DNA from: Candidatus Absconditicoccus praedator
Lineage (GTDB): Bacteria; Patescibacteriota; Gracilibacteria; Absconditabacterales; Absconditicoccaceae
Assembly (NCBI RefSeq): GCF_021057185.1
Contig: NZ_CP054059.1
Location: forward strand, 990,001-1,022,000
Length of the DNA: 32,000 nucleotides
Direction of reading: 5' to 3'
Shown in pieces: positions 19,656-27,563 of this stretch. The notes beneath the pieces are model-generated. The model did no database searches and had not been told where the DNA came from. It saw nothing but the letters and a program-made list of their open reading frames with translations. The translations under genes and the position numbers were made by a program. Positions within the stretch are counted from its first letter, which is position 1, and every line of letters starts with the position of its first letter.

Positions 19656-20123
19656 TTACTTCACATCTACTATCTTCATTTCATATCTTCTTCTTGGCGC
19701 TCTTACACTTACTGTATCTCAAGCTTTTTTTCATTCTATTGCTTGTCATACTGGACTTGCAAATGATATTGATCCATTCAAAATATCTACTTCTCAAGCT
19801 CACACCAAAGTAAACTCATATACATTTTTTTTATCATCTTCTAATGTTACACTAGATCAGTACCTTACTACACCTCATCACTGTCATTCTTCTATTATTT
19901 CTACATTTTCAAGCATACCCTCTATCTCATTTATCCTCACCTCTATAAGATCTTTTTGAGACATAGCATCATCATATTCCGCATTTTCAGATATATCTCA
20001 CTGAGCAATTGCTTCTTTAAGTCTTTCTAAAACTTCTGGTAACTTATTTTTTTTCAAATCTTCCAGTTCGTTTGCTAGTTTGTCATATCAGCTTTGAGTA
20101 AGATATTTTTTTTCTTCAGCCAT
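19656..20123 (-). CDS. greA: transcription elongation factor GreA, 155 aa
   Basis: ATG 20123, TAA 19656-19658. MAEEKKYLTQSGYDKLANELEDLKKNKLPEVLERLKEAIAQGDISENAEYDDAMSQKD...SFASPVGQAIEGKKAGDTVSV. Confidence 0.92.
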
Positions 20124-20148
20124 TCTTGTTGATAATTATTATATAAAT

Positions 20149-20472
20149 TTATTTGTCTGACATTTCTCTTTTAAAATGATCAAATGCATGATTTACAAGA
20201 TCAGTGATATTTTTAAAAGGTACATCATTTTGATATATCATACCTTTTCAGTCAAGATTTAATCTGAAAGACCCTTCATATTTTTCTTGTTTATTTTTTC
20301 TTACATCTATCTCAAATCTTGCTTCTGCATCATCCTTTTGTAAAGCTGCATTAAGATATCTATCAAGCTTTCAGTTTATGTTTTTTTCTATCAAAGTCTT
20401 TAAATCTTCTTGTAAAGCATCAGTAATTCAATCAAACTTATAATTAATTTTTATATTTTCATTCTCTTGCAT
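20149..20472 (-). CDS. hpf: ribosome hibernation/translation-inhibition factor (RaiA/HPF, S30EA family), 107 aa
   Basis: ATG 20472, TAA 20149-20151. IKINYKFDGITDALQEDLKTLIEKNINGKLDRYL...ARFEIDVRKNKQEKYEGSFRLNLDGKGMIYQNDVPFKNITDLVNHAFDHFKRE follows the RaiA/HPF pattern. Confidence 0.7.
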
Positions 20473-20532: not shown

Positions 20533-20837
20533 CAAAAAAATCAACAAAATTATTAAATTCATACAAACAGCCCTATATTGATAATTTAAAATAATATATT
20601 ATGATAGAAGATAAAAATTATATACAAAAACTTGTAGAACAAAAAGACATTGAATGACTTAAAAGGGAATGGCAAACTATTGTCAATATAAAATCACAAA
20701 TAGTCGATGCTTTATCAACTTGTTCAAAAAGGAGACAAAAAGATTTTAAAACCTTAGAAGAGCTTGAAAAAAAGCAAAGACAAATTACTCAAGCTCTGAA
20801 TGAACTTGAACCAAAATCAAAAACTAGTCATTAACAA
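20533..20837 (+). repeat. direct repeat, copy 1 (about 305 bp; core 20613-20837)
   Basis: The 225-bp core matches 25709-25933 with 4 mismatches and no indel (offset 5096 bp). The upstream 22-mer caaaaaaatcaacaaaattatt (20533-20554) recurs at 25633-25654. The stretch between is more diverged, with a 4-nt length difference. Confidence 0.9.
20601..20834 (+). CDS. small helical protein, 77 aa (hypothetical), intact copy
   Basis: ATG 20601, TAA 20832-20834. [77 protein letters not shown]. Confidence 0.6.
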
Positions 20838-21022
20838 GTTTAGTCTTGGATTGTTTCAACAAAACTTAATTTTTATTATCTTAGAATTGTTGACTTTTTT
20901 ATTCAAACTTTTTTCTTAGCTACCTAAAACCTTCAAACATCCTCCTTAATCTCTTTCCTTTTTTGCTTACTCTAGTTATCCTAATTACTGTTTATTATAC
21001 TTATTATTTCCCAAAAGATTTT

Positions 21023-21919
21023 TTATACTATTCACTCATTTAGTCTTCTAAGCAACAAACTTGTTTCTTCTCTTTCCTTTTTTTCTCCTTCTAATCTTTC
21101 TTCTCTTGCTTGTTCTACTTCTTCTAATTTTTGAATTGCTGATTCATAAAGTTCTTTTGAAATAGTTCATGCTGGTATTTCTATATGGTTTCATCTTGGG
21201 TATTCTATAGTTCATCAGTGAAAGTATGCATCCAGTTCTTCTCTTGTGACAGGGTCTTGTCGATAATTGTACCTATCATCTCATATCTGGTCTAATAAGT
21301 TTTCTTTGGCTGTATTAAACTCATCTTCATATTTATCTTCTGGGATTGAATCTTCACGTCTTATTATATCTCTCACCCTTGCTATTCATCTACTATTAAA
21401 CAACTCTATTCAATGATAACTTAAATCATCCACATTATCCAACTGTGCCTTCATTGTAACAAACTGTATAGTATCCCAAGCTTCTACAAATTCTGCACTA
21501 AATATATCTATCTCTCTTCATTTCTCTCATTCTGTTTTTGTACTAAGATCTCAACTTTCATCCAACTTTCTTCTTTCTGAAGATTCAAATATTCTTAGAT
21601 CTCAATCCTCAAATTCTATTTTGTATCAAGCAGCTTTTGCTGAAACTGTATATCGTTCTATTGTTTTATCTCTCACTCAATCTCTTAAATCTACATGGAT
21701 CTGATACTCTAAATCCATGCTAAATATAGATAAAGGATGGTTTGTATCTTTTTTGTATACCAAAAATCTATCGTCTGCTATCTCTTCCACTCATACATTA
21801 TCTATATCATATCAGTCTCTTTCAAGTCAGGCTGATAGTATTTCTTCATTCCTTTCCAAAAATTCAGCTTCTCTTTCTTGTCCTTGTTGCTCTATTTTAT
21901 TATCCATTTTTTCATTCAT
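21023..21919 (-). CDS. acidic hypothetical protein, 298 aa (third gene of the orphan operon)
   Basis: ATG 21919, TAA 21023-21025, 897 nt, checked codon by codon. MNEKMDNKIEQQGQEREAEFLERNEEILSAGLERDGYDIDNVGVEEIADDRFLVYKKDTNHPLSIFSMDLEYQIHVDLRDG... It starts 12 nt after the stop of the 1094-aa gene. Confidence 0.65.
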
Positions 21920-21931
21920 TTTTAACTAATT

Positions 21932-24900
21932 TTATCAAGGTAAATATTTTTCTATAAAATCTTCACTGGTTTCCTCTTCAGGTAGTCTCTCTCTAAGCTG
22001 TTCAAGTACAACATTCCTAAAATACTCACTTCACAATCCATCTATATCATAGATATGTTTTTGATCTTTTTTCTCTATAAGAGCCTGCTCGAATAGTCTC
22101 TTCATCCTAGACTTCTCTTGATTTAATTTAATAATGATTTCTTCATAATTATCAACGCTTTCTGGGCCTATCATATTAAGTAATCTTTCTTCAAAAATCT
22201 GGTCTATTATTCTTTTCCCTTCATCTCTAAACTCTCATGTGCTTATCTCTTCATTCTCTGCTTTCTCTACTAAATTTTCAAATCTACTATCAAGCTGGCC
22301 TTCTTCTCATTGATTTCATTCAAAATTATTCATTACACTTTCTAATGTAATTCCAGTAGTTAGTATACTTGTAGGTATTGTTCACCTTGCACTTAGTGTA
22401 GACAATGATCCTCAATAATCTGAATTTATAGCTCTTGTGGTTCATCTACCCATAAAAGCACCCAGTCATACTTTATCTGAAAAATCATTAAATCTCCTCA
22501 TTAAGTCACTAACTTCATCTGGAGATCTTGCTCTTCATCAATAAAACAATGCTACAATAAGGTTTGAAACAACTTCTTGAGTTAAATTTTCAGCACTCAT
22601 ATCTAACTCACCTTGAGAAAATCCATCTATTCCCATTGATATTCCCATTAAAGATGTAGCATCCATTGCTACTTCCCTTGATCTACTCATATCATCTCTA
22701 AATCTCATTCTTCTAGTAGCACCAAGATATCCAAATTGTGTCATAAATGTTAGTAAGCCTTCGGATACACCTTCACCATAAGGATTTTCAAAACTTTCCC
22801 CACTTAATGCACTATCTGTAACTTCCTCTCAAAGTAAATATCAAAAATGAAATGGAATAGCTTCACCTGCTCATCTTGCTCATCTTAAAGCATGTCATCA
22901 CATACTACTGCTATTATTTATCATAGCTCTAGCTCTTAGTCATCATCTAACATTTAAAACTCTTGCTCCACCTCTTGCTAACAAATATGAACCTCTAGCA
23001 GCTAATGCAACAGCTCATAATCATACAGCTGAAGCAGCTACTGTTATAGCTAATTCTCTTGCAACAATTGCTATTGCCTCTTTTTGAGTGTCTGACAAGT
23101 TGAATCGTCATATACCTTCAATATCTCAATACATTTCAAGTAAAGGATTGTCTCAATTATATCCACCACTACGATTAGAATTATTTTCAATTATCTCTTC
23201 AACAATAGCAGATTGTATTCATTTTTGTATAAATTCTTTACCTAAGTAATCTGACATATTATCAACTATCATATCCATATTTTCTTCCAAAAATCTTTTT
23301 CTTTCATCCTCTTCTGAGCTAAGATCTTCTTTATTTCTTAACTCTTCTAATTCTTCTTCTAATTCATTTCTTTGTGCTTCAATTAATCTTTCTCTGTCAT
23401 CAAAAGACTCTTGGATTTGTTCAAAAAATTCTCTTGCTTTTGTACTTGAATATTCTCAATTTTCATCATTAAAAAGTCACATTTGCATAAGTTTGAACAT
23501 CATAGTATTTTCTCATTCAGGTATACTATCTGCAAACTTTCAAGTTCTACTATCTACTCATTTTTCTTCTATCATTTTATCATATCTATCTACTTGAGGA
23601 GATGGTCACTGTGCTGAACTAATGGGTCTTTCAGGAACAAGTTCTCAGCTATCAGAAAATGTTTCTAAAGATTCATTAAATTCAGCAATAAGTCTATCTA
23701 TTCATTTTTCTCATACATAATCTATAAAATTATTAATTTCATCTTCTGATGGAATTTGTTCTAGATTTAATGGTATATAATCATCATATTCATTTAATGC
23801 ATCAGGATTTTCTAATATATACTCTGATATTTGTTCACTAAAATTTTCTCAGTCCAATCACAATTCTCTGATTGTTTCAAATGTTTTGATATATTTATCA
23901 TGTCATATATATTCATTGTCAAAAAAGTCTTTTACAATCTTTCTATCATCAAAAATTCTATCTAATCTTTCTCTTACCTCAGGGTCATCTGTGTCTACAA
24001 CACCAGTATGTTGCTCGTTTTCTATATCAAGGTTTTCATCGAAAATTTCTTCTATTACAACATCTCTTATTTCATCTAATCAGCTTTCAATTTTATCAAA
24101 AACATCTTCTTCCCAATTTATATCTCTTAGATAAGGATTCATTCTTGATGTCCTATCATTTGTCAATGTTTGAGATTTTATCAAACTATCAGACATGCTT
24201 TCAAAGATCTCATTTATTCTTTGAAAATTTTCATCATCTTGATTTAAAAATCTTGATCACTCTTCTATATTTTCTTCCAAAGCTTCCAAAAATATAGATA
24301 TTGTATCTACTTTTTCATTTATTCTTTCAGCTTTCTCATAAGTTTCTCTAAATTCATCACTTTCTACATATTCTCTTTGGGCTTCATAATTTTGCATCAT
24401 ATCCAACACTCAAGCAATAGGTTGATATTGTTCATTTGCAGACAAAAAATCATCTATAGAATCATATCATTGTGCTTCTTCTAAAATATCACTTAAATTC
24501 TCTCTATGTTTTTCTCAATCATATTGAAATTCAACTTTTCAGTCTGTCATATCCATATCTAGCACTCTATCAGTATTTTGTAGTTGCTCATAGTTTTCTT
24601 TTATTCATGGATAAGCATCTACATCTACACCATTGTGTTCAGCTATTTCTTCCCAACTTACTCACCTATATACAAGCTCCAAAATACTTATATAAATATC
24701 TTCTCAATCATGTCATTCATATTTCAACATTATCTCTCAAGTATCTGAAATTTTGAATAAATCACTTTGTTCAGGATTTATTTCTATTGATTCTCAAGCT
24801 TGTATCTGATCTGGACTTTGTAGTTGTGAGTTTGATTCCAAAATATCTTGCATATCAACTCAATGATCATCTGCAATTTTAGACAACACATCTCATGGTA

Positions 24901-25216
24901 ATATATCATATTGTATTATACCATCCAAATGTTCTTCTATGGAAGAGACAATATTATCTACCATATCTTTATTACTTTCTATGTTTTTACCTAATTCTAA
25001 AGACTCAATAACTAATTCTATAAAAGCATACTGTAAAGCTTCTTTTTCATACTCTTCAAGATCTTCACTATCAGACACCTGTTCCAAATGTTGCTCAGAT
25101 TTTTCTACAACATAAGAAACAAGTTCTTGCTTACTTTCATATTCAAGATTATCTTTTATATCTTCTGTATTTTCTTTTTCCTCTATTCTCCACATTGTGA
25201 AACTTTCAATGGACAT
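21932..25216 (-). CDS. giant acidic LysM-domain protein with central hydrophobic/Gly-Arg-rich segments, 1094 aa (hypothetical)
   Basis: ATG 25216, TAA 21932-21934, 3285 nt. Every codon was checked and there is no in-frame TAA or TAG, with dozens of TGA. LysM-like YDILPGDVLSKIADDHGVDMQDILESNSQLQSPDQIQAGESIEINP lies at about 24773-24910. The hydrophobic AIAIVARELAITVAASAVGLGAVALAA lies at about 22990-23077. A TGA-dense stretch VRGGLRARAM..MGGHALRGARGAG lies at about 22865-22951. Confidence 0.75.
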
Positions 25217-25218
25217 TT

Positions 25219-25470
25219 TTATAGATTATCCAGTAAAGATTCTGCCTCTTTTACTTCTTCTTGATATTCTTTTTCTTCTTTTTTCTTTTTTATTTTATTT
25301 TTTTGGTTTTGTAATAATAATCAAATTTTATCTTTTAAATTTGGATCTTTTTCCAAAGATTTTTTTACCAAAACTTTTTTAAATTCTTCTAATTGATCTA
25401 TAGTGTTAATTATTTTTTCTCTTTTATCTTCTGAAAATCTATCCCACTGAGAGATCAACTTTTTTTTCAT
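25219..25470 (-). CDS. small lysine-rich helical protein, 83 aa (first gene of the orphan operon)
   Basis: ATG 25470, TAA 25219-25221. MKKKLISQWDRFSEDKREKIINTIDQLEEFKKVLVKKSLEKDPNLKDKIGLLLQNQKNKIKKKKEEKEYQEEVKEAESLLDNL. Its stop is 2 nt from the ATG of the 1094-aa gene. Confidence 0.55.
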
Positions 25471-25632
25471 GCTCTGCCTCAAAAATAGGGATTTTTTGAT
25501 TTTATTTATATTTTCTTGGTTTCAACAACTCATAAAAAATTATGACAGCCTAAATACATAATAAATTATATCAGTTTTTTTATAAAATGCAAATTTGATT
25601 AATTACTAAAATAAGATTTTACAATACATATT

Positions 25633-25933
25633 CAAAAAAATCAACAAAATTATTTTATATGTACCCAAAATAATTTTATTGATTATCTAAAAATGATATT
25701 AATGAAAAAAAAATTATATACAAAAACTTGTAGAACAAAAAGACATTGAATGACTTAAAAGGGAATGACAAACTATTGTCAATATAAAATCACAAATAGT
25801 CGATGCTTTATCAACTTGTTCAAAAAGGAGACAAAAAGATTTTAAAACCTTAGAAGAGCTTGAAAATAAGCAAAGACAAATTACTCAAGCTCTGAATGAA
25901 CTCGAACCAAAATCAAAAACTAGTTATTAACAA
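25633..25933 (+). repeat. direct repeat, copy 2 (about 301 bp; core 25709-25933)
   Basis: See copy 1. Mismatches fall at 25768 (TGG>TGA), 25867 (AAA>AAT), 25903 (synonymous) and 25925 (CAT>TAT). Confidence 0.9.
25702..25930 (+). pseudogene. second copy of the 77-aa gene, out of frame with its ATG because of an A9 tract (pseudogene or phase-variable)
   Basis: The conserved frame runs from 25712 to TAA 25928-25930 but is closed upstream by TAA at 25700-25702. The ATGs at 25693 and 25702 are in the +1 frame. ATG 25702 is followed by 9 A (25705-25713), and removing one A gives MKKNYIQKLVEQ... in frame. Confidence 0.6.
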
Positions 25934-27563
25934 AATGCAGGTAAACTCAAGCATAATTTTCCACTCATACAACTTTTAACTCCTCTCAATCATCCAAAAT
26001 CAAACTTCAAGTATCAGAAGTCTGACCACCCGATTCTGCATAAAAAGGCGTTTTATCCAAAACTACTACTCTTTGTCAGTCTACTTCAAAATCTTTTAAA
26101 ACACTACTATCTTGAGTTTCCAAAGTATCATATCCAACAAATTTAGTGGCAGGAATTCAATGCAAATACTTCGCCCAGTCTATTCATCTTTTGAATACAT
26201 CTTTTGTTCACTCACGAGATCTTTCTCTGGCTTTTTCCATTTCTTTTTCAAATCAACACAAGTCCACAGCAAGTCAATTATCTGTAGCTATCTCCTTGGT
26301 AAGTTCTACAGGAAAACCATATGTATCATACAAAAGAAAAATATTTTTTCACTCAATCTCTTTTGAAGAATTTTTCATTATTTCATTCAATTTCTGCCTT
26401 CAATTATTTATTGTTTTTTGGAATTGAGATATTTCGTTTAGGATAGAAGAAACTATTGATTCTGTATTATTAGAAATTTCAATATAGTAAGTTCAATATT
26501 TCTTATTAATTTGATCAACCAGGTTTTTCACAAAATCATCCAATTTTGCATTTTCATCAAGAGAAATTACCGAATAATACAGCCTTCTAATCAGTCTCCT
26601 AAGCACATATCCCCTACCCTCATTACTTGCAATTACTCAGTCTCATATCATAAAAACAGCTGTCCTTATATGATCTGCTATTATTCTAAAATGTTTTGTA
26701 GTATTGTTTTCCTTATCAGAAAAATCATTTTCATGTTTTTCAAATGGAGGATATTTTTTGTCTACCAAATCTTGTATAGCAAGCATTATAAACTCAAAAA
26801 GATCACACTCAAAAACTGTTTGTTGTCATTGCAAAATCATTGCCAGTCTTTCCAATCACATACCTGTATCTACATTTTGTTGAGAAAGTTTGGAAAAAGT
26901 TCAGTCTTCATTTTTGTAAAATTCCATAAACACATTATTCCAAACCTCCAAAAATCTATCATTTTCTCACATATCCCAATCATTTGGCCCCCACTCTTCT
27001 CATCTATCAATATGAATTTCTGCACAAGGCCCACATGGACCTATCTCTCAAGCAGGACCTCGGAAGTTATCTTCCATTCAAATAGCTTTAATTCTTTGGT
27101 CAGGAATTCATATTTCATTAAGAATTTTTCTAGCCTCAGTATCTTCTCATATTCACAAACTTTCATCACCAGCAAAAATTGTAACCCCTATTTTTTCCAT
27201 GGGAACTCATATATACTCATTCAAGAACCTGATAGACCATGTCAAAGATTCTTTTTTGAAGTAATCACCCAAAGACCAATTCCCTAGCATCTCAAAAAAT
27301 GTAAGATGTCTTTCATCACCAACTTCATCTATATCTCAAGTTCTTAATGATTTTTGCGTATTATAAAGTCTTTTTCATTGAGGATGAGGTTTTCATACAA
27401 GATAAGGCACAAGTTGTTGCATTCCTGCAGTAGTAAACAACACAGTTTTGTCTTGGCTATCTGGTACTAGTGAAGCATATTTTAGATAAGTATGATTTCT
27501 ATCTGGATCTTGCCAAAACTCATCCCAAAGTTTTCTAATTTCTTCTGAGGTTAATTTTTTCAT
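25920..27563 (-). CDS. alaS: alanyl-tRNA synthetase, catalytic and tRNA-recognition part only (547 aa); editing and C-Ala domains absent
   Basis: ATG 27563, TAG 25920-25922, 1644 nt. [118 protein letters not shown]. It ends ...GVYLHFVNN*, with the final codons lying inside repeat copy 2. Confidence 0.88.

Follow-up and report, generated by a model that had tools for sequence, protein, structure and literature searches.

An alanyl-tRNA synthetase probably split between two genes in the Absconditabacterales

Where is the rest of an alanyl-tRNA synthetase (AlaRS) whose gene stops in the middle of its editing domain, exactly at the edge of a direct repeat? The question is raised by the alaS gene of Candidatus Absconditicoccus praedator, a bacterium of the SR1/Absconditabacterales lineage in which UGA is read as glycine. 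The gene lies in a window (by which we mean the whole stretch of 32,000 nucleotides (nt) analysed) that corresponds to positions 990,001-1,022,000 of the genome, which is complete at 1,129,696 bp in a single contig. AlaRS has been described as the sole synthetase that keeps its four-module prototype throughout biology, the exceptions being a split nanoarchaeal enzyme and a viral mini-enzyme (PMC10036535). Here we argue that the AlaRS of this bacterium is very probably naturally split: two genes, left by one ancient fission, would encode parts that reassemble, and the repeat would belong to an unrelated, later insertion.

The gene in the window, which we call alaS-N since it would encode the N-terminal subunit of the split enzyme, occupies 25920..27563 on the minus strand. 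It runs from an ATG at 27563 to a TAG stop at 25920-25922 and encodes 547 amino acids (aa) when translated with genetic code table 25 (TGA=Gly). The open reading frame (ORF) holds 29 in-frame TGA codons read as glycine, and this code is supported by the presence of a tRNA-Gly(UCA) gene in the genome. Residues 8-546 match the Pfam family tRNA-synt_2c (PF01411) over model positions 1-532 of 552 (505 bits, cut-off 30.3), and TIGR00344 (alaS) is matched over positions 1-528 of 847 with 521 bits, above the cut-off of 457. With a class II core and a tRNA-recognition domain above curated cut-offs, alaS-N is a bacterial alanine--tRNA ligase, and a search of the complete genome gave no PF01411 match outside this locus. 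An editing domain with HxxxH and CxxxH motifs and a C-Ala domain are missing from the same polypeptide; neither tRNA_SAD nor DHHA1 has a Pfam match in the ORF.

Alignment shows alaS-N to be collinear with the E. coli enzyme from residue 1 up to about E. coli residue 537, which lies within the beta-barrel sub-domain and 27 residues ahead of the HSATH zinc motif; the A. fulgidus enzyme (3wqy) can be aligned up to residue 574. Residues 1-460 (26184..27563, minus strand) constitute the class II aminoacylation core and the helical tRNA-recognition domain, as assigned from the E. coli alignment, an AlphaFold model and Protein Data Bank matches to the catalytic fragments 1riq, 3htz and 3hxu. The residues that read the G3:U70 base pair are kept (N314, equivalent to E. 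coli N303, and D413, equivalent to D400) and are invariant among 41 split-type N-part homologues, and the sole tRNA-Ala of the genome, tRNA-Ala(UGC), has a G3:U70 pair. Residues 461-547, which end in GVYLHFVNN (25923..26183, minus strand), were assigned from AlphaFold and alignments to a linker and an incomplete beta-barrel of the editing domain, with strands modelled at 488-494, 497-502, 519-522, 528-537 and 540-545, so that the chain ends just after a strand. Among alaS-N homologues, mean column identity is 0.66 for residues 487-547 and also 0.66 for the catalytic core. NF002436, which describes a short fused AlaRS, matches alaS-N over positions 2-446 only, with a score under the cut-off. 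An initial annotation, made from the letters of the window, had already described a 547-aa alaS that ends as HFVNN-stop in mid-barrel without editing and C-Ala domains, and translation, Pfam, the E. coli alignment and AlphaFold all bear this description out.

The same annotation proposed that the rest of the genome be searched for an ORF with the editing and C-Ala part, and such a gene exists. A genome-wide search with tRNA_SAD gave two matches, one to ThrRS and the other to a 309-aa ORF, alaS-C, which lies about 230 kb from alaS-N (G000:C1:785272-786201, minus strand). Its product begins with MKAKVEKTQRIGKQRAHTATHLLH, also contains CGGTH, and comprises the last barrel strand, an editing core with HxxxH and CxxxH motifs, a helical arm and C-Ala. 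Positions 542-819 of the 847 positions of TIGR00344 are matched by alaS-C, which aligns with residues 548-851 of E. coli AlaS, M1 standing opposite V548; on A. fulgidus 3wqy its start falls at about residue 584-589. Judged by these alignments, alaS-N and alaS-C together correspond to a canonical bacterial AlaRS minus about 10 loop residues (E. coli 538-547). Both parts score higher with the bacterial model TIGR00344 than with the archaeal TIGR03683 (521 vs 199 bits for the N part and 188 vs 126 bits for the C part).

The putative zinc ligands of alaS-C (H17, H21, C119 and H123) are invariant among 60 homologues. Its AlphaFold model (pLDDT 95) starts with a coil (residues 1-6), followed by the editing core (7-152), a pair of long helices (153-212) and, at the C-terminal end, a globular domain (224-308). 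The best Foldseek matches are full-length AlaRS structures (9a7x_B and 3wqy, 313-341 columns), whereas AlaX proteins cover only about 150 columns, in the core. As a free-standing editing core with zinc motifs alaS-C resembles AlaX-type proteins, yet at 61 bits it is below the AlaXM equivalog cut-off of 300. Conservation of its first residues alternates as in a beta strand (M1, three variable positions, V5), yet these residues form a coil when the protein is modelled alone. Since alaS-C is present in the complete genome, the organism cannot be classed among those with a mini-AlaRS and no editing or C-Ala module, and the gene content does not support the view that it lacks AlaRS editing. We also considered a split intein and rejected protein splicing, since the two ORFs total 856 aa with nothing extra, the N part ending in HFVNN-stop and the C part starting with a conserved methionine.

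The same cut is found throughout our survey of the order, in which a single family was sampled among the order's genomes. Nearly all of 24 same-family relatives, every one of them TGA-recoded, have an N-part frame of about 530-570 aa with the same model end position, together with a C-part frame that stands apart from it, on a different contig or far off, and measures about 305-330 aa. In single-contig or large-contig genomes the two halves lie, for example, at 63 kb and 792 kb (G021) or at 925 kb and 428 kb (G002). C-part matches were obtained in 24 of 24 family relatives, the match in G001 and G003 being the editing core of a fused short AlaRS. When 18 relatives from 18 genera, 42-89% identical to alaS-N, were aligned residue by residue, the N parts all ended in GV[FYW]LH[FLI]x(1-3) followed by the stop, and the C parts all started with M-[KQ]-x-x-[VI]-[DNH] and then QRxAKMRAHTATHLLH. 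The coordinates are the same almost everywhere in a survey of 120 genomes from 37 genera, about 100 genomes beyond the 18 aligned ones stopping at the same model position. Two intact, separate genes that jointly cover the enzyme are conserved in this lineage. By sequence comparison, the bacterial AlaRS is encoded by two genes across the order and breaks at a new place, inside the barrel of the editing domain. Beyond the closest relative, no conserved gene neighbours of either half were found inside the fetched flanks. In public records the C part is mostly named "hypothetical protein" or "alanyl-tRNA synthetase", and the N part "alanine--tRNA ligase".

Several variants were met in the same survey. 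Most other families of the class have a fused short AlaRS of about 595-620 aa, of the NF002436/PRK01584 type and without C-Ala; examples of the fused short form are G001:C3:162119-163879 (L023) and those of G044, G074 and G127. One genome of the same class, G027, has a full AlaRS of 883 aa. Split, short fused and full-length forms being all present, at least three AlaRS architectures coexist in the class. A three-piece AlaRS, hinted at by the survey table for G059 and G013, was rejected, as each apparent break coincides with the end of a contig. In some relatives, namely at L047 (G090:C54), L049 (G136:C41), L048 (G137:C4) and L050 (G095:C38), alaS-N has inserts of 120-170 aa within its aminoacylation domain, ahead of QNVDTGMG; these differ in sequence between genomes, one being PD-(D/E)XK nuclease-like (with a database homologue that has PF13366) and one HAD-like. 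In genus g23 (e.g. G060, G065, G070 and G116) alaS-N has only 0-7 in-frame TGA codons, versus 29 here, which means that the use of TGA for glycine varies widely within the order.

When did the gene break? A tree of the charging module unites 17 split-type N parts in a single clade, with a Shimodaira-Hasegawa-like approximate likelihood ratio (SH-aLRT) support of 100; this clade adjoins two clades of full-length AlaRS of 870-880 aa, among whose members are G027 and a record named Candidatus Gracilibacteria. The tree of the editing and C-Ala part likewise places 20 C parts in one clade (SH-aLRT 100) and joins it to these two full-length clades, leaving E. coli outside (SH-aLRT 99). Since both halves stand beside the same full-length clades, they would descend from one vertically inherited AlaRS, and alaS-C would not be an acquired AlaX. 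A single fission of a full-length, Gracilibacteria-type AlaRS in the ancestor of the order is thus well supported as a reading of these trees.

How would the two products work? In our reading, the product of alaS-N comprises the aminoacylation core together with the tRNA-recognition domain and the bulk of the beta-barrel. alaS-C starts at a conserved methionine of its own and supplies the final strand of the barrel, the zinc-dependent editing core, the helical arm and C-Ala, the domain that would bind the tRNA elbow. The two may then reassemble non-covalently, the N-terminal strand of alaS-C completing the barrel of alaS-N, and the reassembled pair would behave much like the canonical enzyme, charging G3:U70 tRNA-Ala and clearing Ser- and Gly-tRNA-Ala. 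We infer reassembly because the cut falls inside a folded sub-domain, because alaS-N retains about 60-75 residues of the barrel, a stretch not known to serve any purpose without the editing core that is nevertheless conserved like the catalytic core, and because the first residues of alaS-C look strand-like in their conservation and are unstructured when modelled alone. These observations also speak against an alternative in which alaS-N is a lone mini-AlaRS and alaS-C an autonomous, AlaX-like trans-editing factor with C-Ala, the two forming no stable complex; the low AlaXM score of alaS-C and its clustering with the C-terminal halves of AlaRS in the tree are likewise at odds with it. On the other hand, E. 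coli N-terminal fragments and the Tupanvirus mini-AlaRS are described as charging without editing or C-Ala domains (PMC11392972, PMC10036535), free-standing AlaX shares the fold of the editing core, alaS-C folds confidently when modelled alone, and two genes 230 kb apart are not co-transcribed. Because N-terminal AlaRS fragments are active alone, we take this alternative seriously as a minority possibility, while considering it unlikely. A further idea, that charging and proofreading are physically uncoupled throughout the Absconditabacterales, with alaS-N acting alone as the synthetase, alaS-C, as a fission product with C-Ala retained, being a trans-editing factor dosed separately, and the fidelity for Ala versus Ser and Gly tunable by the ratio of the subunits, we regard as rather doubtful; if true, alanine fidelity could be tuned in a lineage that also reassigned UGA to glycine.

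The natural split with reassembly, which we prefer, has to be set against several points. The binding of alaS-N to alaS-C is argued from conservation and from models of the single chains, and the E. coli N-terminal fragments 442N and 461N are active alone (as cited in PMC11392972), so that a stable complex would not be required for charging. Genera g2 and g44 carry a fused short AlaRS of about 600-620 aa instead of the split pair, and the split is therefore not universal in the order. Moreover, the trees are quick LG+G4 searches with composition warnings on several split rows, and SH-aLRT is the one measure of support behind the claim of a single origin.

What, then, of the repeat at which alaS-N ends? 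A direct repeat of 225 nt occupies 20613-20837 and 25709-25933; the copies are 98% identical and are the only two in the 1.13-Mb genome. The last 14 nt of alaS-N lie in copy 2, the identity of which to copy 1 ends at 25933, and the codons for V-N-N and the stop (25920-25931) sit within that copy, just as the initial annotation had described in every detail. From this coincidence it suggested that the 3' part of alaS had been removed or moved elsewhere by a recombination event, and it pointed to the neighbourhood of another repeat copy as the place to look for the missing part. The end position, however, is identical in 18 aligned relatives and about 100 further genomes, the ORF carried by the repeat was found in none of 40 relatives searched, and the closest relative (G019) ends in HFVA-stop at the same codon without a repeat; a homologous end in relatives that lack the repeat is the very observation that the initial annotation had named as telling against its own proposal. 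Nor is there a repeat copy near the intact alaS-C gene, both genome copies lying in the window. We consider a recent truncation of a full-length alaS by recombination at the repeat, with enzyme and organism left without AlaRS editing, extremely improbable, and the same holds for an artefact of assembly or annotation, in which a mis-join at the repeat or a frameshift would falsely end alaS. Repeats of 225-305 nt can indeed mislead assemblers, but more than 100 relatives, assembled independently and drawn from different sources, have the same stop and a separate C part, and the C part has its own conserved Met start. Past the stop there is no AlaRS-like sequence in any frame: what adjoins is the repeat with its small ORF and then, as the next genes on the same strand, the three genes of the LysM block, which are without AlaRS domains. 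PF01411 and tRNA_SAD match nowhere else in the window.

Comparison with G019, whose alaS-N is 89% identical, suggests how the repeat came to lie there. In that genome alaS-N is followed after 87 nt by a gene for a 107-aa protein and greA. Their counterparts in the window, with 73% and 85% identity, are a 107-aa ORF at 20149-20472 and greA at 19656-20123 (together 19656..20472, minus strand), which would be the ancestral downstream neighbours of alaS-N. The sequence between, approximately 20554..25928 (borders approximate, about 5.4 kb), would be a genome-specific insertion that carries both small-ORF copies together with the LysM block of three genes (21023-25533, minus strand, assigned by Pfam). 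The G019 gene ends CAC TTT GTA GCT TAA, while here the corresponding codons after the shared TTT read GTT AAT AAC TAG; homology continues through TTT GT and is followed by inserted sequence. The comparison thus shows the repeat to be unrelated to the split and to be the border of a later, genome-specific insertion at the alaS-N stop that only changed a terminal A-stop into NN-stop. An insertion deeper into an essential gene would presumably be lethal, which would explain the exact abutment.

Both repeat copies lie on the plus strand. Copy 1 (20613..20837) contains an intact small ORF of 77 aa (20601-20834), and its right end repeats the 14-nt alaS-N tail except for one mismatch. In copy 2 (25709..25933) the frame of the same ORF is open at 25703-25930 and is convergent with alaS-N, so that its 3' end and the alaS-N tail (V-N-N-stop) overlap by 11 nt (25920..25930); it is in this overlap that alaS-N diverges from G019. 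This frame has no in-frame ATG, GTG or TTG, and a run of nine A leaves the ATG at 25702 shifted by one base relative to it; the copy may be decayed, its start may be slip-prone (phase-variable), or the homopolymer may contain a sequencing error. Upstream of each small-ORF copy (window 20534-20553 and 25637-25657) stands the 22-mer AAAAAAATCAACAAAATTATT, which partly matches the spacer between alaS-N and the 107-aa gene in G019 (GTTGATTTTTT, other strand, L004 about 2270-2290). By this match the duplicated unit seems to contain part of the intergenic sequence that was originally there. The 107-aa ORF itself has no Pfam match and by eye resembles HPF/YfiA (ribosome hibernation or sigma-54 modulation).

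A search of full-text literature returned no published split AlaRS in bacteria, SR1 or Patescibacteria, the only split AlaRS met being that of Nanoarchaeota; subscription journals are largely outside the coverage of that search, so that absence is not proven. A split AlaRS offers a natural test of whether C-Ala and the editing domain need a covalent link to the charging module and, provided that reassembly takes place as we suggest, a natural example of assembly by strand complementation. There is also a practical side: with "hypothetical protein" as the label of the C part in many public SR1 records, a reader could wrongly conclude that these genomes have no AlaRS proofreading.

Compared with the canonical enzyme (E. 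coli AlaS, 876 aa), the pair has all four modules with their key residues, namely the class II core, the equivalents of N303 and D400, HxxxH/CxxxH and C-Ala. It differs in consisting of two polypeptides, encoded 230 kb apart, from which about 10 residues of a barrel loop (E. coli 538-547) are gone. The short fused AlaRS of about 595 aa (NF002436, PRK01584 type) also departs from the prototype of about 875 aa, but unlike the split pair it is one polypeptide in which the charging module passes straight into the editing core, and it has no C-Ala. alaS-C shares with AlaX-S and AlaX-M (e.g. 1wnu and 2e1b) the fold of the editing core, the zinc motifs and the free-standing state; in contrast to AlaX it adds a helical arm and C-Ala, and whereas AlaX-M carries its own barrel, alaS-C is without most of it. 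alaS-N, taken alone, resembles the charging-only enzyme of Tupanvirus, TuAlaRS (PMC10036535), from which it differs in retaining a conserved barrel remnant and in belonging to a genome that keeps the editing and C-Ala parts.

Another parallel is the split AlaRS of Nanoarchaeota, described for N. equitans and others as AlaRS-alpha and AlaRS-beta (Waters et al. 2003, as cited in PMC11392972; see also PMC10036535). In both cases two distant genes jointly cover the essential enzyme in a tiny, host-dependent genome, and the second subunit bears the editing and C-terminal domains. The nanoarchaeal enzyme, however, has an archaeal-type sequence and its break lies at about E. coli residue 368, within the tRNA-recognition domain; on its own, the alpha subunit is weak and lacks specificity for G3:U70 (PMC11392972, PMC10036535). 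The AlaRS of Absconditabacterales has a bacterial-type sequence and a break at about E. coli 537/548, within the beta-barrel of the editing domain, so that alaS-N keeps the whole module for charging and for reading G3:U70.

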